32,307 nucleotides of DNA from a virus (Duplodnaviria; Heunggongvirae; Uroviricota; Caudoviricetes), in IMG/VR virus record IMGVR_UViG_2711768067_000015; one strand, written 5' to 3'. The position numbers and the translations under genes are program-made. Position 1 is the first letter of the stretch; every line of letters begins with the position of its first letter. The notes under the pieces are model-generated. The model saw only the letters and a list, made by a program, of their open reading frames with translations. It was not told the origin of the DNA and did not search any database. Shown one piece after another: positions 1 to 12,201 of the stretch.

Positions 1-573
1 GTGTTATCTTACTTAATAGCAATTCATTTTGTTTTACTTGGAAATTCTTCTGATTTAAAAAGCTTTTGGAAATCTGAAGTAATACGGCGAGAGCATATGA
101 ATATCTGGAGGCTTTTCAGAGAGAAAAAACAGCGTAACAGGAATTTCCTTTTCTGGTGGCGGCTGGCTAACGAAATGTATATTAATGGTAATAAATTACA
201 TAAGAAAGCTGCTAAAAAGTTAAACAATAAAATAATTAACAATTTTGGTTGCGAGATTGGACTGGGCGCAAAAATTGGAAAAGGGCTAACAATTCCCCAT
301 CACGCTGGAATTGTTGTTCATTTTGCTGTTGATGCTGGTGAAAATCTGGTGTTACGACAGAATACTACTATTGGACAGATAGATGGTGACATACCTGGTT
401 CAAGAGTAAAAATTGGTAGTAACGTTGATATCGGAGCTAATTGTTGCATCATTGGATTATCACGTAAAATTGGGGATAATGTAAAAATAGGCGCAATGTC
501 TTTTATAAATAAAGATATACCATCGAACTGCACATATATAACTAAAAAGAACGGTGTTGTTTTGTATAAATAG
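1..573 (+). CDS. Hexapeptide-repeat (left-handed beta-helix) acyltransferase, CysE/WcaB-like; may be 5'-partial at the window edge or start at the ATG at 97
   Basis: ORF-track translation shows tandem hexapeptide motifs (GAKIGKG, IGSNVDIGANCCI, IGDNVKIGAMSFI) typical of serine/sugar O-acetyltransferases. Codon 1 is GTG and the frame is open to the window edge. Sequence is visibly AT-rich compared with the neighbouring phage genes. Confidence 0.7.
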   Translation: MLSYLIAIHFVLLGNSSDLKSFWKSEVIRREHMNIWRLFREKKQRNRNFLFWWRLANEMYINGNKLHKKAAKKLNNKIINNFGCEIGLGAKIGKGLTIPHHAGIVVHFAVDAGENLVLRQNTTIGQIDGDIPGSRVKIGSNVDIGANCCIIGLSRKIGDNVKIGAMSFINKDIPSNCTYITKKNGVVLYK

Positions 574-580
574 AGCACAT

Positions 581-619
581 AAAGCCATCGATATTTCTAT
601 CGATGGCTTTTTCTTTTTA
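581..619 (+). terminator. Rho-independent terminator downstream of the acyltransferase gene
   Basis: Inverted repeat aaagccatcgat / atcgatggcttt with a 6-nt loop, immediately followed by a T-rich tract (ttttctttttatt) on the plus strand. Confidence 0.55.
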
Positions 620-1195
620 TTGTGGGGCGACTGGCCACTCAATATCCGCTGCTACTGTTGTATCAACACGATTCAACAATACCCGATATGTCTTCCATGC
701 AGCCAGTAACGATGCCTCTTCCTCCGTCGCAATATCCAAATCTACGGCATCCTGAAGTGGCGCAATATGCTCACTGGCTACCTGCATCAGGCTGTTTTTT
801 GTTTCTTCCGCCTCCTGGATCCGGAACAGTTTTTCTGCTTCTGCATCTTTCACCCAGGATGTACCGTTCCACTTCTGAAACTCCCCTTCCGGGGATAACC
901 AGGTGACATTTTCCGGTAATGGGCCAAGTTCAGAAATAAATAACGCGTCGCCAGAAGCCACGTCATAGACGGTTTTACCCCGATGGTCTTCAACGAGATG
1001 CCACGATGCCTCATCAGTGTTGAAAACAGCCACGAAGCCAGCCGGAATATCTGGCGGTACAATATCGGTACTGTTTGCAGGCAGACCTGTATGAGGTGGA
1101 ATGTATGCATCACCTTCACCAATAAATTCATTAGTTCCGGCCAGCAGATTATAAATTTTTATGGTCTGTGGTTGTTCACTCATTCTGAATGCCAT
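617..1195 (-). CDS. tfa: Tail fibre assembly protein (Tfa-like chaperone)
   Basis: 192-aa ORF directly downstream of the tail fibre gene with overlapping stop/start. N-terminal sequence [34 protein letters not shown] matches my recollection of enterobacterial prophage Tfa proteins. Confidence 0.85.
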
Positions 1196-2307
1196 TATGC
1201 GAGCCTCACAATATAGTTAAATGCGATGTTTTTGACGGTGTTTTCCGCGTTACCAGCAGCGTTAACGGTGATGGTGTGTCCATGTGAACCAATCGCAACG
1301 GAGTGCGTGTGTGCACCAATACCGACAGTGTGCTGATGAAAACCAATACCTACAGTATGAGAATGTGAGCCAGAGGAACCTGTTGTTGCTGATGTATATT
1401 GAGTTGCCAGACGCCCAGATGTCAGTGGAATTTTCCCCCCCTGGTTTGCACCATCTGATGTTGGTATTGAATGCGTGTGACTCCCGGCGTTACTGGTAGT
1501 TTTGGTCCCATAGTCAAATAGTGAGGTTGTTTTCGTCCCGTAATCAAACGACGATGTGGTTTTCGTACCCAAATCCGTACTGGATACGCTGGCGCTGTGG
1601 GTGTGCGATTTAATGCCGTCCTGTTCCTGAGACAATACGGCACGACCACTGGCGGGCTTGCCCTTAATCGTCCAGCCACGCATATCAGGGATCACGCCTG
1701 ACGGATAAGCAGCTGCAAGTTTCGGGTATGCAGACTTGTCAAAAGTCTGTCCCTGCATCAGAGCATAACCAGATGGAACTGTATCTGATGGCCACGGGAT
1801 CGGGGCACCTACAGGAAAGGTCGAATTATTTTCCAAACCAAGATATTTAAGGACATCAGCAACAGAGCTTTTTGCCAAAATATCTCGCCCAACCTGTGTC
1901 AGGTCAGCCAAATTAGCGGTATCTTGATTGGTAAAATACGGTAATTTGTTTTCGGATGCTGAAAGATTAGCAAGTGCGGTAAGTATGGCATTAATTCTCT
2001 GATAGTTCTTATCTAATGCAGACGACATTTTTGCGATAAAGCCGGCCTGATCGCCATCGTCCTGTACATCCAGTCCACTTTCATTTGCTGTATATTGTGC
2101 TATTGCAGATGCAATAAAGCTGGCCTGCCGAATAGCCTTGTTGACTTGCGCGCTGGATGCTTTCCCTGCTGTAAATCCTGATAAAAGCGCAGGCAACGCT
2201 TCCCATTCATCCTGCGACATAACATTGGCATTTTTACCCGTTGCAAACGCTTTAAAGTCATTTTTCGCCATCAGAGTAATACTCCCCATGCCCCTACATC
2301 AAAACCA
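866..2307. repeat. Direct repeat copy 1 (about 1.44 kb) spanning the 5' part of tfa and the whole tail fibre gene; identical to 3176..4617
   Basis: ORF-track proteins from three frames are identical between the copies at a constant offset of 2310 bp (1195..2289 vs 3505..4599; 983..1216 vs 3293..3526; 1284..1499 vs 3594..3809; 1422..1679 vs 3732..3989). Borders were read directly from the sequence. Confidence 0.9.
1195..2289 (-). CDS. Tail fibre protein, copy 1 (364 aa, His-rich HxH repeats in the C-terminal tip)
   Basis: Follows the gp48-like baseplate gene and precedes tfa. C-terminus carries [28 protein letters not shown] motifs typical of enterobacterial phage fibre tips. Confidence 0.85.
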
Positions 2308-2362: not shown

Positions 2363-3505
2363 TTATGCAAGCCTCACAATATAGTTAAATGCGATGTTTT
2401 TGACGGTGTTTTCCGCGTTACCAGCAGCGTTAACGGTGATGGTGTGTCCATGTGAACCAATCGCAACGGAGTGCGTATGAGCACCAATACCGACAGTATG
2501 CGCGTGTGCACCTGCAGATGCTGCTGTGCCGGACAGTGAGTGGCTATGATTACCATCTGTACTGGTATTAGCTAACCACCCCGTAGACATACCTACTGAA
2601 CCTTGTACACCCCAGGTATTTTGACCTGAGCTTGTATAACCATATTGATAAGTATCTTTAAAAACACTGGGGTTAAATCGACGGCCATCTCTATGGCTGT
2701 GATTACCAGCTGCATTCGTGCTGCCACTTAAACTATGAGTATGCGCACCAGTGTTATTCGTGGATTTAGTGCCGTAATCAAACGATGATGTGGTTTTCGT
2801 ACCCAAATCCGTACTGGATACGCTGGCGCTGTGGGTGTGCGATTTAATGCCGTCCTGTTCCTGAGACAATACGGCACGACCACTGGCGGGCTTGCCCTTA
2901 ATCGTCCAGCCACGCATATCAGGGATCACGCCTGACGGATAAGCGGCCGCAAGTTTCGGGTAAGCAGATTTGTCAAAAGTCTGCCCCTGCATCAGGGCAT
3001 AACCAGACGGAACGGTATCTGATGGCCACGGGATTGGTGCGCCGACTGGGTAGCTTTCTGGTGGAAGATTTTTCGAGGTATAAACTTCTGCCCAGTCTTC
3101 CTCAAAACCATAACCGTCTCTTGAAGAACGGTAGAACAGACCACCATTTCTGTAATGCGCCTTCATCTGCAAACCGTTCCACTTCTGAAACTCCCCTTCC
3201 GGGGATAACCAGGTGACATTTTCCGGTAATGGGCCAAGTTCAGAAATAAATAACGCGTCGCCAGAAGCCACGTCATAGACGGTTTTACCCCGATGGTCTT
3301 CAACGAGATGCCACGATGCCTCATCAGTGTTGAAAACAGCCACGAAGCCAGCCGGAATATCTGGCGGTACAATATCGGTACTGTTTGCAGGCAGACCTGT
3401 ATGAGGTGGAATGTATGCATCACCTTCACCAATAAATTCATTAGTTCCGGCCAGCAGATTATAAATTTTTATGGTCTGTGGTTGTTCACTCATTCTGAAT
3501 GCCAT
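2363..3505 (-). CDS. Chimeric ORF: Tfa N-terminal 110 aa fused in frame, via a 41-aa linker, to an alternative tail fibre C-terminal tip cassette
   Basis: First 110 aa are identical to Tfa (617..1195). The C-terminal part aligns with the fibre tip but has a divergent central segment (about 2480..2770), flanked by stretches identical or near-identical to the fibre gene. Whether it is expressed is unknown. Confidence 0.55.
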
Positions 3506-4617
3506 TATGCGAGCCTCACAATATAGTTAAATGCGATGTTTTTGACGGTGTTTTCCGCGTTACCAGCAGCGTTAACGGTGATGGTGTGTCCATGTGAACC
3601 AATCGCAACGGAGTGCGTGTGTGCACCAATACCGACAGTGTGCTGATGAAAACCAATACCTACAGTATGAGAATGTGAGCCAGAGGAACCTGTTGTTGCT
3701 GATGTATATTGAGTTGCCAGACGCCCAGATGTCAGTGGAATTTTCCCCCCCTGGTTTGCACCATCTGATGTTGGTATTGAATGCGTGTGACTCCCGGCGT
3801 TACTGGTAGTTTTGGTCCCATAGTCAAATAGTGAGGTTGTTTTCGTCCCGTAATCAAACGACGATGTGGTTTTCGTACCCAAATCCGTACTGGATACGCT
3901 GGCGCTGTGGGTGTGCGATTTAATGCCGTCCTGTTCCTGAGACAATACGGCACGACCACTGGCGGGCTTGCCCTTAATCGTCCAGCCACGCATATCAGGG
4001 ATCACGCCTGACGGATAAGCAGCTGCAAGTTTCGGGTATGCAGACTTGTCAAAAGTCTGTCCCTGCATCAGAGCATAACCAGATGGAACTGTATCTGATG
4101 GCCACGGGATCGGGGCACCTACAGGAAAGGTCGAATTATTTTCCAAACCAAGATATTTAAGGACATCAGCAACAGAGCTTTTTGCCAAAATATCTCGCCC
4201 AACCTGTGTCAGGTCAGCCAAATTAGCGGTATCTTGATTGGTAAAATACGGTAATTTGTTTTCGGATGCTGAAAGATTAGCAAGTGCGGTAAGTATGGCA
4301 TTAATTCTCTGATAGTTCTTATCTAATGCAGACGACATTTTTGCGATAAAGCCGGCCTGATCGCCATCGTCCTGTACATCCAGTCCACTTTCATTTGCTG
4401 TATATTGTGCTATTGCAGATGCAATAAAGCTGGCCTGCCGAATAGCCTTGTTGACTTGCGCGCTGGATGCTTTCCCTGCTGTAAATCCTGATAAAAGCGC
4501 AGGCAACGCTTCCCATTCATCCTGCGACATAACATTGGCATTTTTACCCGTTGCAAACGCTTTAAAGTCATTTTTCGCCATCAGAGTAATACTCCCCATG
4601 CCCCTACATCAAAACCA
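3176..4617. repeat. Direct repeat copy 2 (identical to 866..2307)
   Basis: Same evidence as copy 1. To the right it continues into the unique gp48-like gene. Confidence 0.9.
3505..4599 (-). CDS. Tail fibre protein, copy 2 (identical to copy 1)
   Basis: Protein is identical to 1195..2289. The start overlaps the stop of the gp48-like gene, which is the native context. Confidence 0.85.
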
Positions 4618-5261: not shown

Positions 5262-6457
5262 GACTCCACCGTTATAACGATATTTTCCGGGGTACAGTAC
5301 GCAGATTCGTTGTATCTGATATCAATGTTTGATGACGAAAAAGCCCCCGGGGATTTCCCAATCGTCAGTTCCTGAATATCGTAATAGCGTGCATTCCCGC
5401 CACTCACCACGCCAAGATTCGCCGGTGAGTAAATGCGACTTAAAAGGACCGAATCACCAATCATCAGACTATTGATATAGTCGGAAATAGCCTGCTGGAT
5501 CTGCTGCCCTATCTGTGAGGTATAACCCGTAAAAACTTTTAATTTAATCCGGGCATAAACAGGCACATCACTGGAACGCGAGAATTTGATTACATGGGGA
5601 TTGCCGTATTTATCCGGCACCGTAACGGATGTTGTACCGTGAGTGGCTGTCCCCTGACCTTTATTCCCTCTGATAGCCTGAGCAATATCCGTCACATCAC
5701 CACCATCCACAATTACAGCAACAGAGTGTGGCGGTAACCCGTTACCGTCCTCCGAACCAGTATCGTTTTCATAGAGTTTGTGGCGGGTTACACCGGTGAC
5801 ATTAGAAACAGCACCATCCAGTGCTTCAAATGGGGTTATTGATGGCAACGCAACACTTTGCGACTGGCGGATACGTAACTCCGCATCAGTTTCTGCCGGA
5901 GTGCCCACAGTGGCTGCAGCAGGATTGGTTACCGAAACCCAGCCACGGGTTGGCGTATTAATTTCAGTGATAGTTCCAGCCAGCGCCGCCACTGCGCCAC
6001 TGACGGAACATGTTGCGGTCACCATCACTGTACCATCCACGCCTACCACCACTGAAGCAGGCAAACGCCATATCACATTATTACTGTCTTTCACGCTGCC
6101 ATTAATGATGGTTGTTCCGGCAGTTCCTGTAAGAAGCAAATCAACCGTAGAGTTCGTCGCGCCTTTACGTGAAATACCATTTATTTTCACGTTACTGGTC
6201 AGTGCAGCCCCATAGCCGGTTGCCGGTGAAAAACAGTTGTAGACAGTTATCGCCGTATTATTGGCATCATGAATCGCCAGCGCCATCAGAGCCACCATCT
6301 GGCCGTCTTTGCTGTCCGGTTCGAGGTAGGCATCACTGCCATAAATCTGCTGAAAATAGCTAATCAGGGTGCTGAGTATCGTCTGATAATCAGGCGCACT
6401 GATCCCCTCCGCGGTTACCTTTGCAGATAAACCGAGAGAATCAAGGTTCAGAGCCAT
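5258..6457 (-). CDS. Baseplate J-like protein (Mu gp47-like)
   Basis: 399-aa ORF in the baseplate gene string. Size and position match baseplate wedge J-family proteins. Confidence 0.7.
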   Translation of the reverse strand: MALNLDSLGLSAKVTAEGISAPDYQTILSTLISYFQQIYGSDAYLEPDSKDGQMVALMALAIHDANNTAITVYNCFSPATGYGAALTSNVKINGISRKGATNSTVDLLLTGTAGTTIINGSVKDSNNVIWRLPASVVVGVDGTVMVTATCSVSGAVAALAGTITEINTPTRGWVSVTNPAAATVGTPAETDAELRIRQSQSVALPSITPFEALDGAVSNVTGVTRHKLYENDTGSEDGNGLPPHSVAVIVDGGDVTDIAQAIRGNKGQGTATHGTTSVTVPDKYGNPHVIKFSRSSDVPVYARIKLKVFTGYTSQIGQQIQQAISDYINSLMIGDSVLLSRIYSPANLGVVSGGNARYYDIQELTIGKSPGAFSSSNIDIRYNESAYCTPENIVITVES

Positions 6458-7581: not shown

Positions 7582-7606
7582 AAAAAACCCGCCGGGTGGC
7601 GGGTTC
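7582..7606 (-). terminator. Rho-independent terminator after the 79-aa membrane protein gene
   Basis: Minus-strand hairpin AACCCGCC-ACCC-GGCGGGTT followed by TTTTTTG, 16 nt downstream of the stop at 7622. Confidence 0.6.
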
Positions 7607-7621
7607 ATTATTGAAGTTTCA

Positions 7622-7861
7622 TTACTGCTTGTTTGCTTCTAACGCTTCAGCTATTCGGCGAAGATACTCATTGTTTTTAAATGAAACCATGATGCACTCA
7701 AAGAATATTCGGCAAAATACAGCACATAACAAAAGCACTAAAGCGCCAGCAGCCTTCCCATTAACAAACGTTATAATGGCGGCAACAACCAGAAGTAACA
7801 TTGTGATGCCATACAGAACGTTGATGATTTTTGGAGTTATTAATTTATCAAATCCGAACAT
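7622..7861 (-). CDS. Small membrane protein (79 aa, two predicted transmembrane helices); moron-like cargo gene
   Basis: Two hydrophobic stretches (ITMLLLVVAAIITFV and ALVLLLCAVFCRIFFECIMV). AAGGA ribosome-binding site, with its own promoter-like element upstream and a terminator downstream. Confidence 0.6.
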   Translation of the reverse strand: MFGFDKLITPKIINVLYGITMLLLVVAAIITFVNGKAAGALVLLLCAVFCRIFFECIMVSFKNNEYLRRIAEALEANKQ

Positions 7862-7897
7862 GCGACAAATTCCTTATCGTGAAAGTAGAAGTACCAC

Positions 7898-7925
7898 ATT
7901 ATAATTACGAGTGATTAATCAACAA
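7898..7925 (-). promoter_or_regulatory. Candidate sigma70 promoter for the 79-aa gene
   Basis: On the minus strand: TTGTTG (-35), a 16-nt spacer, then TATAAT (-10), ending about 36 nt upstream of the ATG at 7861. Confidence 0.4.
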
Positions 7926-8256
7926 TCTTTTTGCATGGAAAGGAACCGATGATTTTCGGCGCATCCATGCTGTTCTGCAGCAGTTGGACATTCAGGAATC
8001 GCGTTTCGGTACCAGGGCGACGAATGTATTCAAAGCCGTAGTTGTTACCGTCTTTGGCAGGCATAAGCCCCATGTCTACTTTCAAACCATTGGTACCCAG
8101 TTCGGTGATTTTTTGAGAGGTAACTCTTTCACCGTTGATTGTCGATAACTCGCCCTGGTTTGCAACCATAGTGTAGCCACCGCATTTAACCGTGAAGCCA
8201 TCCGCCCACGCGCTGCACGCAGAAAAGACAGCTAACAGAAAAATAATACCCCTCAT
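7915..8256 (-). CDS. Secreted or lipoprotein-type small protein (113 aa) of unknown function
   Basis: N-terminal signal peptide MRGIIFLLAVFSACSAWA with an AWA/DG signal peptidase I motif (or possible FSAC lipobox). Two Cys in the mature part. Starts 4 nt after the upstream 353-aa gene. Confidence 0.65.
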   Translation of the reverse strand: MRGIIFLLAVFSACSAWADGFTVKCGGYTMVANQGELSTINGERVTSQKITELGTNGLKVDMGLMPAKDGNNYGFEYIRRPGTETRFLNVQLLQNSMDAPKIIGSFPCKKIVD

Positions 8257-8259
8257 TGC

Positions 8260-9321
8260 TCATCCCCTTTGCAAAGCCGATTGCGTATACAGATCCGCCG
8301 CGCCACGCGCTTCGCACATCATATCCATGTACCACGCCTGGCCTCTTGTATCGCCACTGTACATAATCCCGCGCACAATATAAACGCCATCCGTTGCGAT
8401 GCTGGCAGGCTGCGATGTGGTGCCGCTGAGCGTGATATTTCCGTCCGTGTTCTGGTCGGTGATCTGACCACCAGCCATCGCAATATCGTTGTTCGACAAC
8501 GCGGTACGATAGACGGAAGCCTGATCCAGCTGAATGAGCCCGTTAACCCGGATGTTCGGATTAATAAGAGCGCGGACGTTTACGCCGTTGCCGATGGTCT
8601 GCTGCGGCATGCCAATAAGCCCGGTAGCACTGTTGAGCACAATCGCTTCGTGAACATATTCATTAGTCGCCACCATCTGGCGCTGACCGTCCACGAATTG
8701 CCATGTTGCGCCACATTGCCCGGCTACATTATCCATAAGATGCCGCGTCATGCCAAAGAGTACCCGCCCCCGGGGGAATACAGTAGCAGGCATTTCAGGC
8801 GTCAGGCCTTCGGTCGCGCCTTTGTCTTCGAAGTCTTTCATCAGCGCACGGTTCACATCAGCGACTGTGTAACCGGCAGCCAGCGTCTGTGAGGTTATAC
8901 TGGTGGCAAAAGCCAGATCTGTATCGGCTGCCTGAATCAGGACGTAGGAATCAACCGGACTGTCTTTTCCTGTGACCGAGTAGCGAATTTCACCGCTGAA
9001 AATCAGTCCGTAGTTGCGGCCATCACTCTGGCCCACGTCCGCCGCATCAACCTCCCGCACGATCCCGACGTCGCTTGCCGACACCTCCGGCGCGATACCG
9101 TCGTAACCCGCCATCAGACGCACTTTCGAAAACTCCTGTCCGGTAATTCGGTTCACAGTATCTGCCGAGAGGTTATAAATTTTGATAGTCCCTACCCGGG
9201 ACGCGCTGCTGATGTTGAACCAGTCGATCGTAAAGGTGACTTTGAAATCACTTAGCTCAATTCCCTGACCGTTCCCGTCCACAAGCTGCAGCTCGAAATG
9301 TCTCATCCAGTTCTGTGACAT
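8260..9321 (-). CDS. Tail/baseplate protein (353 aa), possibly hub-like
   Basis: Long ORF in the tail gene string between tape measure and the baseplate genes. Function inferred from position only. Confidence 0.6.
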   Translation of the reverse strand: MSQNWMRHFELQLVDGNGQGIELSDFKVTFTIDWFNISSASRVGTIKIYNLSADTVNRITGQEFSKVRLMAGYDGIAPEVSASDVGIVREVDAADVGQSDGRNYGLIFSGEIRYSVTGKDSPVDSYVLIQAADTDLAFATSITSQTLAAGYTVADVNRALMKDFEDKGATEGLTPEMPATVFPRGRVLFGMTRHLMDNVAGQCGATWQFVDGQRQMVATNEYVHEAIVLNSATGLIGMPQQTIGNGVNVRALINPNIRVNGLIQLDQASVYRTALSNNDIAMAGGQITDQNTDGNITLSGTTSQPASIATDGVYIVRGIMYSGDTRGQAWYMDMMCEARGAADLYTQSALQRG

Positions 9322-10213: not shown

Positions 10214-12201
10214 TAACCCACCCTCACCTGATTACTTCGCATGACCTGAGCATTTGCAGACTGTTGCCGACGTGCAACCTCATTACCGACAGCGTGCGGA
10301 TCTCCGCCACCGTAAATGTGGTAAGTATTTTGCTGGTTAACCTCTGTCACTTTGCCACTAATTCCTGCCACGGCAGCCTTATTAATCAGCTCTCGGGAAT
10401 AGATATTTCTTCCATTTTCATGCTGGATAATACTGCTCATCAATGCTGACATGGTTTGCGGATCGCTCATATTCAGGGCAGCCCGGGGATCCACTCCCAG
10501 TCGTTGCGATACAGCCCTGATATACGCAGTTGTGTTGTTATTATCAGACGCAGGTGCCCAGGTAGAGATAATTTTCTCCACACTGTTTATTCCCCGTCCG
10601 GCGTACAGCATTAACTGACGAGCAAGAGCCCGTAATCCATCAAAGGCAGTTTCAAATCTGGCAAATCGCCCGCCCGGGCGTTCAAGAGAAGCCCCTGCCT
10701 GACCAGCAAAATTAAGGTTTCCCGGATTGTTATTCCGTTCTCCTCGTTTCGTAGCCTGTGCATGTTGTTCCGGCTCATCATCACCAAACCAGCTGCGTAC
10801 CGTCCGGCCCACGCTACGGGGATCGAATCCCCAGTGCTCTTTAATCCAGTCGGCAGTACTGTTAGCGCTGTCTGTAACCATCGGCATCGCTGACGGATTT
10901 GCGCTGCCCTGATTAAGTATCTGTTTGCCGATGCTGACGGCATCAGCCCAGCGGCCATCTTTGATAGCGTTGAGCAGGTCGGCGATCATGTTCAGCATTT
11001 TGCTGAATTCGCCCATCTGGTCGATGAAGTTGCTGAAATCCCACTTCAGGGACCATGATTTGGGGTCAATATTGAGTAGTTTCGCCAGCGCTTTCGCCAG
11101 GTCGTTAACGGTCGTTTTAAGGTCACGAACCATCTTCAGCGCGGCATCGACCTCCGGTTTCCACTTGCCCCAGTCAATCAGGCTGTCGCCGCCTTCCTTC
11201 CAGGTCTGATAGTCCTCCCACAGGAGGGCAATACCCGCCGCCAGCGCGGTAATGAGGCCAATCGGCGACATCCAGAACGTACTGTTCAGAATGCGCAGCG
11301 CAATCGTCAGTGCGCCAAACAGCGAGATCAACTCCCGCGTTTGCTTATCCAGCGATTGCCACCAGGTGATGAGGCTTGATGTTCCTTCAATCAGTCTGAA
11401 GAACAGCCGCCCGATAATATCCCCGAGCGCCAGAATGCCTTTTATGGCTTTCGTCAGGGTCTGCTCGATACGAGGGAAGTTGTCCAGGATATGGCGGCGC
11501 AGGGTGTCCAGCGAACCCGCAAGCCCACCCGCAAGATTAGAGCCGATTTTGTCACGGGCCATGCCTGCCATCGCGCCAAACTCACGCAGGGAGGTCATAA
11601 ATTTGTTGGAGCTTCTGGCCGCCTCGTCAGCATTGAAGCCGATAGCTTTCGCCATTGCGCTGTACTGCCCGGAGAAGCCACCCACACCCCGGCGCATCGC
11701 CATAAGGGTATTTTCGTCAATGCCCAGCATCTGCGCATACTGGTTAGCCCGGTAATACGGCATGCCGCTGAGCTTCTGGCCTACACCTGTAAAAATAGCG
11801 GCCATGTCACGCATGTTACCGCTGGCATCCCGTGTCTGTACCCCCAGGCGATTCAGAAATCCCTCTGCCCCGGGATTGATACGAATAAACCGGGAGAGGC
11901 TTTCCAGAGAAGATCGCGCAGCGTCCACGCTGCCGCCAACCTGCGAAACCGCATAGCCAATAGACTGAATTCCCTGGACTGTCGCGCCAGTGCGCTGTGA
12001 CGCCCAGTAAAGATTATCCAGGCCGGAGGCAATCTTAGCCGTAAAGGCCACCACGGACAGTGCAGCTCCTTCAACGGCCAACCCCATTTTGATGACATTT
12101 GCAGTTGTCCCGGCGAGGACAGAACCGAATTTTTTTGCTCCAGCATCATCCACACTGAAGCCAAGCGAGACGAGAAAATCTTTAATAGTTTCAGCGTTCA
12201 T
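10213..12201 (-). CDS. Tail tape measure protein
   Basis: Long, Ala/Gly-rich, predicted helical ORF downstream of the tail chaperone. The ATG at 12201 has a GGAGAGAGG ribosome-binding site; the track start at 12222 is a TTG. Confidence 0.85.
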   Translation of the reverse strand: MNAETIKDFLVSLGFSVDDAGAKKFGSVLAGTTANVIKMGLAVEGAALSVVAFTAKIASGLDNLYWASQRTGATVQGIQSIGYAVSQVGGSVDAARSSLESLSRFIRINPGAEGFLNRLGVQTRDASGNMRDMAAIFTGVGQKLSGMPYYRANQYAQMLGIDENTLMAMRRGVGGFSGQYSAMAKAIGFNADEAARSSNKFMTSLREFGAMAGMARDKIGSNLAGGLAGSLDTLRRHILDNFPRIEQTLTKAIKGILALGDIIGRLFFRLIEGTSSLITWWQSLDKQTRELISLFGALTIALRILNSTFWMSPIGLITALAAGIALLWEDYQTWKEGGDSLIDWGKWKPEVDAALKMVRDLKTTVNDLAKALAKLLNIDPKSWSLKWDFSNFIDQMGEFSKMLNMIADLLNAIKDGRWADAVSIGKQILNQGSANPSAMPMVTDSANSTADWIKEHWGFDPRSVGRTVRSWFGDDEPEQHAQATKRGERNNNPGNLNFAGQAGASLERPGGRFARFETAFDGLRALARQLMLYAGRGINSVEKIISTWAPASDNNNTTAYIRAVSQRLGVDPRAALNMSDPQTMSALMSSIIQHENGRNIYSRELINKAAVAGISGKVTEVNQQNTYHIYGGGDPHAVGNEVARRQQSANAQVMRSNQVRVG

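Follow-up and report, generated by a model that had tools for sequence, protein, structure and literature searches.

A mobile CysE-like acetyltransferase gene paired with a tail fibre assembly gene at a prophage edge, a candidate for lysogenic conversion of an envelope glycan

Deszo et al. reportedly described NeuO in 2005 as the K1 capsule O-acetyltransferase carried by prophage CUS-3. This enzyme is said to act on a host surface polysaccharide that doubles as the phage receptor, and a heptanucleotide repeat tract at the 5' end of its gene underlies phase variation. WcaB (colanic acid) and EpsC (EPS), short sugar O-acetyltransferases of the CysE-like left-handed beta-helix (LbH) kind, are cytoplasmic enzymes that act on lipid-linked glycan intermediates. 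Temperate phages can also carry cargo that modifies LPS, such as Oac of Sf6 and GtrABC of P22 and the Sf phages, which changes both phage receptors and serotype (PMC3851460). Finally, the slot after tfa (gene G) in P2 forms the Z/fun hotspot, a locus of fibre/tfa swapping and DNA invertases whose known cargo consists mostly of defence systems and toxins.

We analyzed a gene predicted to encode an acetyltransferase at the left end of a 32,307-nt stretch of tailed-phage DNA (Caudoviricetes; IMG/VR record IMGVR_UViG_2711768067_000015; hereafter, the window). Compared by description, its closest analogue appears to be NeuO of prophage CUS-3, given that both are phage-borne, soluble LbH O-acetyltransferases (the window enzyme by prediction) whose genes adjoin a receptor-binding gene. 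There are also differences. NeuO-style phase variation is excluded here since a search for tandem repeats in window 1-700 found none, including at the 5' end of the gene. The relatives of the window gene are CysE/EpsC/WcaB-like, whereas the NeuD/PglB/VioB sugar-acetyltransferase model, the only sialic-acid-related one among the matches, gave only 30 bits against a cut-off of 160.8. In addition, the likely acceptor of the window enzyme would be the LPS core and not polysialic acid. Oac, for its part, is an integral-membrane acyltransferase-3 acting on the O-antigen, whereas the window enzyme is predicted to be a soluble LbH protein with the core as its probable target; and classical conversion modules adjoin int/att, whereas this gene lies at the fibre end of the genome. 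The locus shares with the P2 Z/fun hotspot its slot after tfa, and it resembles other moron cargo downstream of tail fibre genes in being a cassette with a terminator, a putative promoter of its own and deviant GC content. However, an acetyltransferase has not been described among the P2 cargo, and this one also travels with tfa outside P2-like phages. The gene would join a known kind, the phage-borne surface-glycan O-acetyltransferases, with an unusually conserved pairing with a fibre chaperone gene.

Table 1. Coordinates of the features at the left end of the window
Feature	Position	Strand	Description
Mobile cassette (moron), part within the window	1..630	+	Homology to tfa loci without the acetyltransferase starts at 631-633
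Acetyltransferase gene	1..573	+	Predicted 190-aa CysE-like LbH acetyltransferase, PHROG 2154; intact, complete; start GTG at 1, stop TAG at 571-573
Intrinsic terminator (predicted)	581..620	+	13-bp stem 581-610, 4-nt loop, T-rich tail 611-620
tfa, tail fibre assembly	617..1195	-	192 aa, TfaQ/TfaR-like; Pfam Caudo_TAP 144.8 bits
Tail fibre gene	1195..2289	-	364 aa, Collar domain and fibre repeats; served by tfa 617..1195

An earlier note on this DNA, made from the letters of the window, suspected that its true start lay beyond the left edge. Our comparison with relatives speaks against this. In four close relatives, a Shine-Dalgarno sequence, AAGGAG (AAGGAA in L001), lies 6 nt 5' of the GTG that corresponds to position 1, and an in-frame stop is found just 5' of this region, while P1-like phages have ATG at the equivalent codon. 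A 37-member alignment of the family shows hardly any variation at residues L19 and E26 near the N terminus, and the match to PHROG 2154 (see below) begins at residue 15 and reaches residue 190. A start at the ATG at position 97, as annotated in JL22, was rejected because it would remove this conserved N-terminal sequence. GTG at position 1 is thus the true start and the ORF is complete within the window, with the 5' part of the cassette, including the Shine-Dalgarno sequence and a promoter-like site, lying outside it.

The same note had described the gene as convergent with the tail genes, provided with its own terminator and much more AT-rich than the phage DNA beside it, and these three observations held. 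The gene converges on tfa, beyond which lie myovirus tail fibre and baseplate genes, and a 43-bp spacer that separates the two convergent stop codons holds the hairpin, whose stem is followed by TTCTTTTTAT. The RNA fold of this element (-18.9 kcal/mol, z = -5.9) was matched in stability by 0 of 200 shuffled sequences, and no T-run was found on the minus strand of the hairpin. We regard it as a strong predicted terminator of the acetyltransferase gene. The GC fraction is 0.34 for the gene (i.e., 34% compared with ~51% for the phage), 0.477 for tfa and 0.511 for window 4600-32307, and the gene keeps 33-37% GC in every host in which it was found. The ORF is intact in all seven copies compared (the window and six other loci, from different phages), and a dN/dS of 0.13-0.19 indicates that the protein is under purifying selection.

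To place the gene among its carriers, we compared window 1-620 with complete E. coli genomes, which gave 575 matching records in 530 of 5,426 genomes. Every match listed carries the annotated pair "serine acetyltransferase | tail fiber assembly protein", and 66 of these places are on plasmids. Most E. coli, K-12 among them, do not have the gene; its carriers include O157:H7 and other STEC as well as P1-like phage-plasmids. The carriers fall into four kinds: (i) a myovirus prophage of the window type (DUF2612, baseplate J; related to vB_EcoM-606R2 and SEN34) beside yfhH; (ii) a prophage with a Mu-type tail module beside dacD, in which the acetyltransferase is 99.8% identical; (iii) P2-like prophages of STEC, with the acetyltransferase between gpU and tfa; and (iv) P1-like phages and phage-plasmids. 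In JL22 (L002), the gene (8000-8572) lies inside the invertible C segment, which is bounded by 602-nt inverted repeats at 5401-6002 and 10263-10864 and ordered cin - S' - U' - acetyltransferase -> <- tfa - S. By these sequence comparisons, the acetyltransferase is carried on at least four unrelated phage backbones.

The limits of homology between the carriers define the mobile unit. On the left, homology ends at -327 (Mu-type tail versus window type), at -82 (P2-like) or at the start codon (P1-like), and on the right, homology to tfa-bearing phages and prophages without the acetyltransferase sets in at window 631-633. The limits at -82 and 631-633 delimit a cassette of about -82 to +630 relative to the start, terminator included, which is 88-99.8% identical across unrelated phages. 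Each upstream variant in the relatives also contains a sigma-70-like site (TTGAAT-17-TATAAT, TTTACA-18-TAATAT or TTGACA-18-TAAAAT), although these are consensus matches whose counts are close to chance; they put the predicted promoter at about -59 to -30. Given the predicted terminator, the deviant GC content, the putative promoter and the presence or absence of the gene among related phages, we classify it as a phage moron. The separate horizontal origin proposed in the earlier note agrees with a near-identical cassette on unrelated phages and its absence from most E. coli. For the same reasons, the counter-case raised in that note, a conserved chromosomal gene present at this locus, fails, and the gene is better described as mobile phage cargo.

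Turning to the product, the earlier note had read it as a hexapeptide acyltransferase, an identification that the many LbH matches in NCBIfam and the PDB, among them structure-based matches to CysE, uphold; we therefore assign the protein, by homology, to the LbH (hexapeptide-repeat) acyltransferase superfamily. An AlphaFold model (pLDDT 78.6) has five helices in residues 1-82 and a left-handed beta-helix in residues 83-190. With this AF2 model, Foldseek returned only LbH CysE structures among the matches listed (query-normalised TM 0.42-0.68), and the nearest solved structures by sequence were likewise all CysE (53 bits, and 88.6 bits with the family profile). The Pfam Hexapep score was marginally below its cut-off (26.6 versus 27 bits), and the CysE/EpsC/WcaB-like LbH models of NCBIfam all matched below their curated cut-offs. 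The match to PHROG 2154, a phage protein family without an assigned function, reached 280.9 bits (E = 6.9e-84; residues 15-190 against profile positions 5-181 of 185).

RefSeq names the gene "serine acetyltransferase" or "serine (O-)acetyltransferase". Indeed, the predicted protein shares with CysE an N-terminal helical bundle, a left-handed beta-helix, and a catalytic His with an acidic partner. In the Neisseria enzyme NgSAT, the catalytic residues are His162 and Asp147, and serine is bound by Asp96, Asp161, Glu170, Arg196 and His197 (PMC8786284). His100 of the window protein aligns with the catalytic His and Glu85, a conservative change, with its Asp partner (His158 and Asp143 in E. coli CysE); both columns are conserved in the 37-member family alignment, His100 being nearly invariant. 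However, NgSAT Asp161, Glu170, Arg196 and His197 correspond to Pro99, Phe108, Ser134 and Arg135, no aligned equivalent of Asp96 was found in the protein, and the columns of the serine-binding residues vary within the family. A variable loop at residues 126-136 would form the acceptor pocket. The protein ends ~10 residues past the last coil of the beta-helix and thus lacks the C-terminal tail through which CysE binds CysK and is feedback-inhibited. Its five N-terminal helices superpose on CysE only in part, and SATase_N was not detected in the Pfam search. Unlike CysE, the gene is also phage-borne, AT-rich, and found among glycan and tail genes. Membership of CysE was rejected on these absent serine-binding residues and on score, with TIGR01172 giving 62.2 bits against a cut-off of 210.65 and PRK11132 40.2 against 397. 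Since neither its sequence scores nor its residues qualify the protein as a CysE, "serine acetyltransferase" is to be read as a homology label and not as a function.

The best-scoring curated families were those of WcaB and EpsC, which resemble the window protein in size (~160-190 aa) and domain layout. It differs from both in its family-specific N-terminal motif, LFWWRLANEMY, and in its extra N-terminal helices. Neither assignment was accepted: EpsC (NF041874) scored 75 bits against a cut-off of 150, and WcaB 53 against 196 (52.4 against 194.65 with TIGR04016), the gene moreover standing beside tfa and not in a wca cluster. An Oac or acyltransferase-3 type was also rejected, as the model predicts a soluble LbH fold with no multi-pass AT3 domain and only a 13-residue hydrophobic helix at the N terminus. 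On sequence grounds, we propose that the protein belongs to a distinct CysE-like family, that of PHROG 2154.

We found no functional study of this acetyltransferase in the literature, and no paper that assigns it a function. The JL22 paper calls the reason for the gene "still unknown", and a paper on Citrobacter rodentium prophages merely lists "serine acetyltransferase" as a fitness factor; papers on SfIV and Hf4s had no bearing on it. The genomic surroundings of homologues offer a lead to the acceptor. At the family level, homologues occur at only ~14 loci in our genome contig scan, most matches of which are distant generic LbH enzymes; relatives that match only from residue 50 or 83 on are general LbH acetyltransferases from diverse phyla. 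Homologues that are 48-54% identical and have the N-terminal FWWR motif lie in chromosomal LPS-core clusters. In Leminorella grimontii, the homologue lies in the order rfaP-waaB-waaI-rfaY-waaZ-[homologue]-rfaL, with all neighbours above their NCBIfam cut-offs. It follows waaZ in a Halomonas genome, has LPS kinases and GT2 upstream in a Pseudomonas genome, and stands beside hldE and msbA in Halopseudomonas, where pseudaminic-acid genes and a second LbH gene also adjoin. A GT25 "LPS biosynthesis" glycosyltransferase gene (123 bits) comes after the homologue in a Xenorhabdus prophage, and a gene resembling GT9 heptosyltransferases (32.6 bits, cut-off 22) does so in a Morganella prophage; in each case, the two genes converge on a tail fibre gene. 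The window itself has no glycosyltransferase partner for the acetyltransferase.

Collectively, LPS genes surround the homologues at four chromosomal loci and in two prophages, so that an association with waa/core genes, as expected for modification of the LPS core, is present among them. The GC content of the acetyltransferase (33-37%) also resembles that of the waa, GT25 and GT9 genes (28-40%). No homologue was found in a wca or eps cluster among the loci examined, and none had cys genes beside it in the contexts examined, where glycan and phage-tail genes stood instead. Singleton homologues at island edges or on the chromosome, in Proteus, Pantoea, Orbus, Obesumbacterium, Rahnella and Salmonella, had no informative context. 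In the general arrangement of their tail genes (Wedge1/DUF2612, Baseplate J), the two prophages match the phage in the window. They were rejected as members of its phage type, given that Baseplate J is only 26-27% identical and that the window's fibre and wedge proteins had no match in them; they share its architecture and not its lineage.

We consider the tail fibre gene served by tfa to be the receptor-binding partner of the module; a second, identical copy of this fibre gene lies at 3505-4599. The allele class of tfa (TfaQ/TfaR-like) occurs in 4,682 genomes, including K-12, and the acetyltransferase adjoins it in only 528. In ~4,150 genomes, the same class occurs without the enzyme, so that the fibre must be able to work in its absence. 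Viewed from the acetyltransferase, the pairing is much tighter. In 68 of 80 IMG/VR loci, tfa lies tail-to-tail within 22-102 bp of the acetyltransferase relative, and nearly all of the others reach a contig end or have fibre/Tfa genes within a few kb. The identities of acetyltransferase and Tfa to those of the window drop in parallel (98/97, 92/92, 65/45, 62/50, 47/50 and 43/39%), while spacers and phage backbones differ among these loci. The linkage to tfa is thus old and exceeds the recent spread of one cassette. It is also compatible with hitch-hiking in a fibre-swapping hotspot of the kind described for P2-like phages.

Given these contexts, we postulate a lysogenic-conversion gene. As a self-contained cassette of (putative) promoter, gene and terminator, the moron would be expressed from its own promoter in the lysogen, and its product would be a cytoplasmic, acetyl-CoA-dependent LbH O-acetyltransferase. 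The enzyme would O-acetylate a sugar of an envelope glycan during assembly of that glycan at the inner face of the membrane, and thereby alter the cell surface. The best candidate acceptor is the LPS core oligosaccharide. Assembly of the core takes place at the cytoplasmic side of the inner membrane, within reach of a soluble enzyme that uses acetyl-CoA, and the core is bound by Mu S-, P1 S- and P2 H-type fibres. O-acetylation might accordingly mask the receptor of fibres of the neighbouring type (Mu/P1/P2/lambda-Stf-like). Together, the homologues in waa clusters or beside GT9 and GT25, the site of core assembly and the binding of fibres make an LPS-core conversion moron the best-supported reading. 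We infer the acetyl-CoA donor, the acceptor sugar, expression in lysogeny and the effect on adsorption and on the host, and it is genomic context that points to surface-glycan modification. We would give about an even chance to the whole proposal, i.e., that this lysogenic-conversion gene serves to O-acetylate an envelope glycan, probably the LPS core, and possibly masks the fibre receptor. As to the sugar or serine acetylation that the earlier note had offered, the contexts in LPS-core clusters and beside GT9/GT25 favour the sugar, and the failed CysE tests disfavour serine. Its link to surface polysaccharide clusters likewise stands through the contexts of homologues, with the LPS core more likely than the O-antigen or capsule.

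A bolder form of this proposal would make a single co-evolving "bind-and-mask" cassette of the acetyltransferase and the neighbouring tfa and fibre tip, in which the enzyme would O-acetylate the very LPS-core epitope that the adjacent fibre binds. As the enzyme would modify the epitope of the fibre itself, any phage that acquires the cassette would gain self-exclusion, and its progeny would be shielded from debris. The acetyltransferase of P1-like phage-plasmids sits inside the invertible C segment, which would then couple expression of the masking enzyme to the host-range switch. We regard this form as unlikely.

Of the explanations that compete with LPS-core conversion, the first retains glycan conversion and changes the acceptor, which could be a different polysaccharide of the envelope (an O-antigen unit, ECA, colanic acid or capsule), with conversion of serotype or capsule as for WcaB/WbbJ in the cell and NeuO in a prophage. 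The best NCBIfam matches of the protein, EpsC (75 bits) and WcaB (~53 bits), with WbbJ weak, agree with such a role, as do the distant relatives, which are general LbH acetyltransferases from diverse phyla. In addition, pseudaminic-acid genes and a further LbH gene adjoin the homologue in Halopseudomonas, so that the acceptor there could be the O-antigen or a flagellar glycan. However, the EpsC, WcaB and WbbJ scores are all far under the family cut-offs, and the informative contexts at the family level are waa core clusters or GT9/GT25 genes, not O-antigen or colanic acid clusters. We consider this acceptor class improbable though worth keeping in view; within the glycan-conversion model, we somewhat favour the LPS core over other glycans.

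The second possibility is that the acceptor is unrelated to glycans (a small molecule, an antibiotic or a protein), with the gene acting in defence or counter-defence or as a host fitness factor and owing its position to a cargo hotspot. In P2-like phages, the slot that follows tfa corresponds to the known Z/fun hotspot, with its defence systems, toxins, invertases and swapped fibre genes, and other cargo in the same slot includes a methyltransferase and hok. The protein also has weak LbH matches to maltose/galactoside and Vat-type acetyltransferases, and many homologues are singletons at island edges. On the other hand, a search with the PADLOC defence models gave only a chance-level Cas6e match (E = 0.007). 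The linkage to tfa, kept down to ~40% identity on several backbones and with differing spacers, exceeds what a random passenger would display, and LPS-gene contexts recur at the four chromosomal loci and in the two prophages. An unrelated acceptor therefore seems to us distinctly improbable.

A true short serine O-acetyltransferase, i.e., a truncated CysE isoform that boosts O-acetylserine/cysteine or disturbs the CysE-CysK complex, is very improbable: the RefSeq name, the CysE structures, the retained catalytic dyad and the precedent of CysE isoforms that lack ~75 N-terminal residues (PMC13040420) favour it, whereas the scores (62 versus 210.65 and 40 versus 397), the replacement of NgSAT Asp161, Glu170 and His197 by Pro, Phe and Arg in columns that vary, the missing C-terminal tail and SATase_N domain, and contexts of glycan and phage-tail genes and never cys genes argue against it.

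The gene merits attention since it is common, being found in ~10% of complete E. coli genomes, and carries a misleading name; its P1-like phage-plasmid carriers also spread resistance genes. Should it O-acetylate the LPS core, it would represent prophage conversion aimed at the core and not the O-antigen, which is not described in the literature that we found. Such a modification would affect the host range of phages that bind the LPS core (P1, P2, Mu and therapeutic phages) as well as LPS immunochemistry, and possibly resistance to antimicrobial peptides. The tight and long-lived pairing with tfa would then offer a testable case of a receptor-binding module that travels with a receptor-modifying enzyme. 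If the gene has no such role, it is just another passenger of a cargo hotspot that is already known.

The earlier note had also suggested that the gene might simply mark the boundary of the prophage, and the two closest relatives of the window's phage confirm this. In both, the intact genes of the prophage end at its edge with the acetyltransferase, to the left of which come a pseudogene, a 215-aa ORF, and chromosomal yfhH 1.65 kb away. Conversion cargo and prophage edge, offered as alternatives, hold together. The AT-rich 215-aa ORF is an orphan with no family match. The pseudogene translates to QTPEQWAQAGRLIASGVPR*NVAIIYDVGVSTLYKKFPVGDE, which we take to resemble the C-terminal helix-turn-helix end of a DNA invertase of the Gin/Pin/Cin type; matches to JL22 Cin as a tblastn query were also used to identify this remnant. 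The prophage with the Mu-type tail module has the same remnant alongside its cassette. The presence of this remnant in both prophage types suggests that an invertible fibre segment such as the one in P1 was probably the ancestor of the fibre/acetyltransferase module. Among IMG/VR records, three prophage contigs terminate exactly at the acetyltransferase start.

A remnant of a DNA invertase, found in the relative L003, is also present in the relatives L001 and L004; 155 bp separate it from the acetyltransferase gene, upstream of which it lies. This Gin/Pin/Cin-type remnant accompanies the acetyltransferase cassette across all three loci (see the table). Because the remnant travels with the cassette, our data suggest that the latter has its ancestry in an invertible tail-fibre segment. 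On the other side of the remnant in L003 there is a 215-aa ORF with a hydrophobic segment at its N-terminus, for which searches of Pfam, NCBIfam, and PHROGs returned zero matches, and which may be additional cargo at the end of the prophage.

The acetyltransferase gene also occurs in P2-like prophages, i.e., L005 (E. coli O103 RM8385) and L018-L021. In P2, the sheath-tube-E-T-U block follows V-W-J-I-H-G in the same direction, whereas in these prophages it is directed towards the V-W-J-I-H-G block, and the acetyltransferase gene is located at the point where the two tail blocks converge. In L018-L020, which carry a 68%-identical acetyltransferase, a truncated tfa and a methyltransferase gene are further cargo in the acetyltransferase slot.

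Features of the window and of loci carrying relatives or homologues of the acetyltransferase gene
Feature	Locus	Position	Strand	Remarks
364-aa tail fibre ORF	window	1195-2289	-	identical to 3505-4599
380-aa hybrid ORF	window	2363-3505	-	first ~110 residues of Tfa + different fibre C-terminus
364-aa tail fibre ORF	window	3505-4599	-	identical to 1195-2289
GC-rich hairpin	window	~7582-7605		after the ~78-aa ORF
Small hydrophobic ORF, ~78 aa (MFGFDKLITPKIINVLYGITMLL...)	window	~7625-7861	-	between baseplate genes
215-aa ORF	L003	8992-9639	+	AT-rich, 33.5% GC; between invertase remnant and yfhH
DNA-invertase remnant (Gin/Pin/Cin-type C-terminal end)	L003	9675-9850	-	internal stop; outside window
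Truncated tfa (87 aa) + class-I SAM methyltransferase (PHROG 2132, function unknown)	L018-L020	5617-6605		between acetyltransferase and full tfa
Acetyltransferase homologue	L007-L011	5001-5573		56% identical
Acetyltransferase homologue	L014-L017	5001-5594		50% identical
waaZ (Kdo III transferase), then homologue	L025	6132-7519
waaZ, then homologue	L034	6001-7384

More distant homologues were found both at other prophage ends and on plasmids. The L007-L011 homologue, which is widespread (594 blocks listed in the collection; a cluster of 270 contigs), is the last gene of its prophage, with genes for tail fibres and for a hok-like toxin ahead of it and chromosomal copA adjoining it. The context of the L014-L017 homologue (E. 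coli large plasmids/contigs) is non-phage and adjoins another surface-adhesion apparatus, with type IV pilus genes (prepilin peptidase, SLT) upstream and IS66 and effector-gene fragments around it. The waaZ-homologue pair of L025 and L034 recurs in Leminorella and one Halomonas genome, and this recurrence hints at a possible location of the acceptor in the inner-core/Kdo region.

Within the window, a 1,445-bp exact direct repeat (863-2307 = 3173-4617; period, 2,310 bp) gives rise to two identical fibre genes and a Tfa-fibre hybrid ORF. The closest viral contig, L113, displays the order acetyltransferase-Tfa-fibre-DUF2612-baseplate J without this duplication. The repeat has one of two origins: a recent event of tandem duplication or recombination, or an artefact of assembly. 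The window also contains a 38% GC island that holds the ~78-aa hydrophobic ORF; an overlapping ORF (7596-7904, +) had no match among PHROGs. The hydrophobic ORF and its hairpin look like a second moron, encoding a putative small membrane protein.
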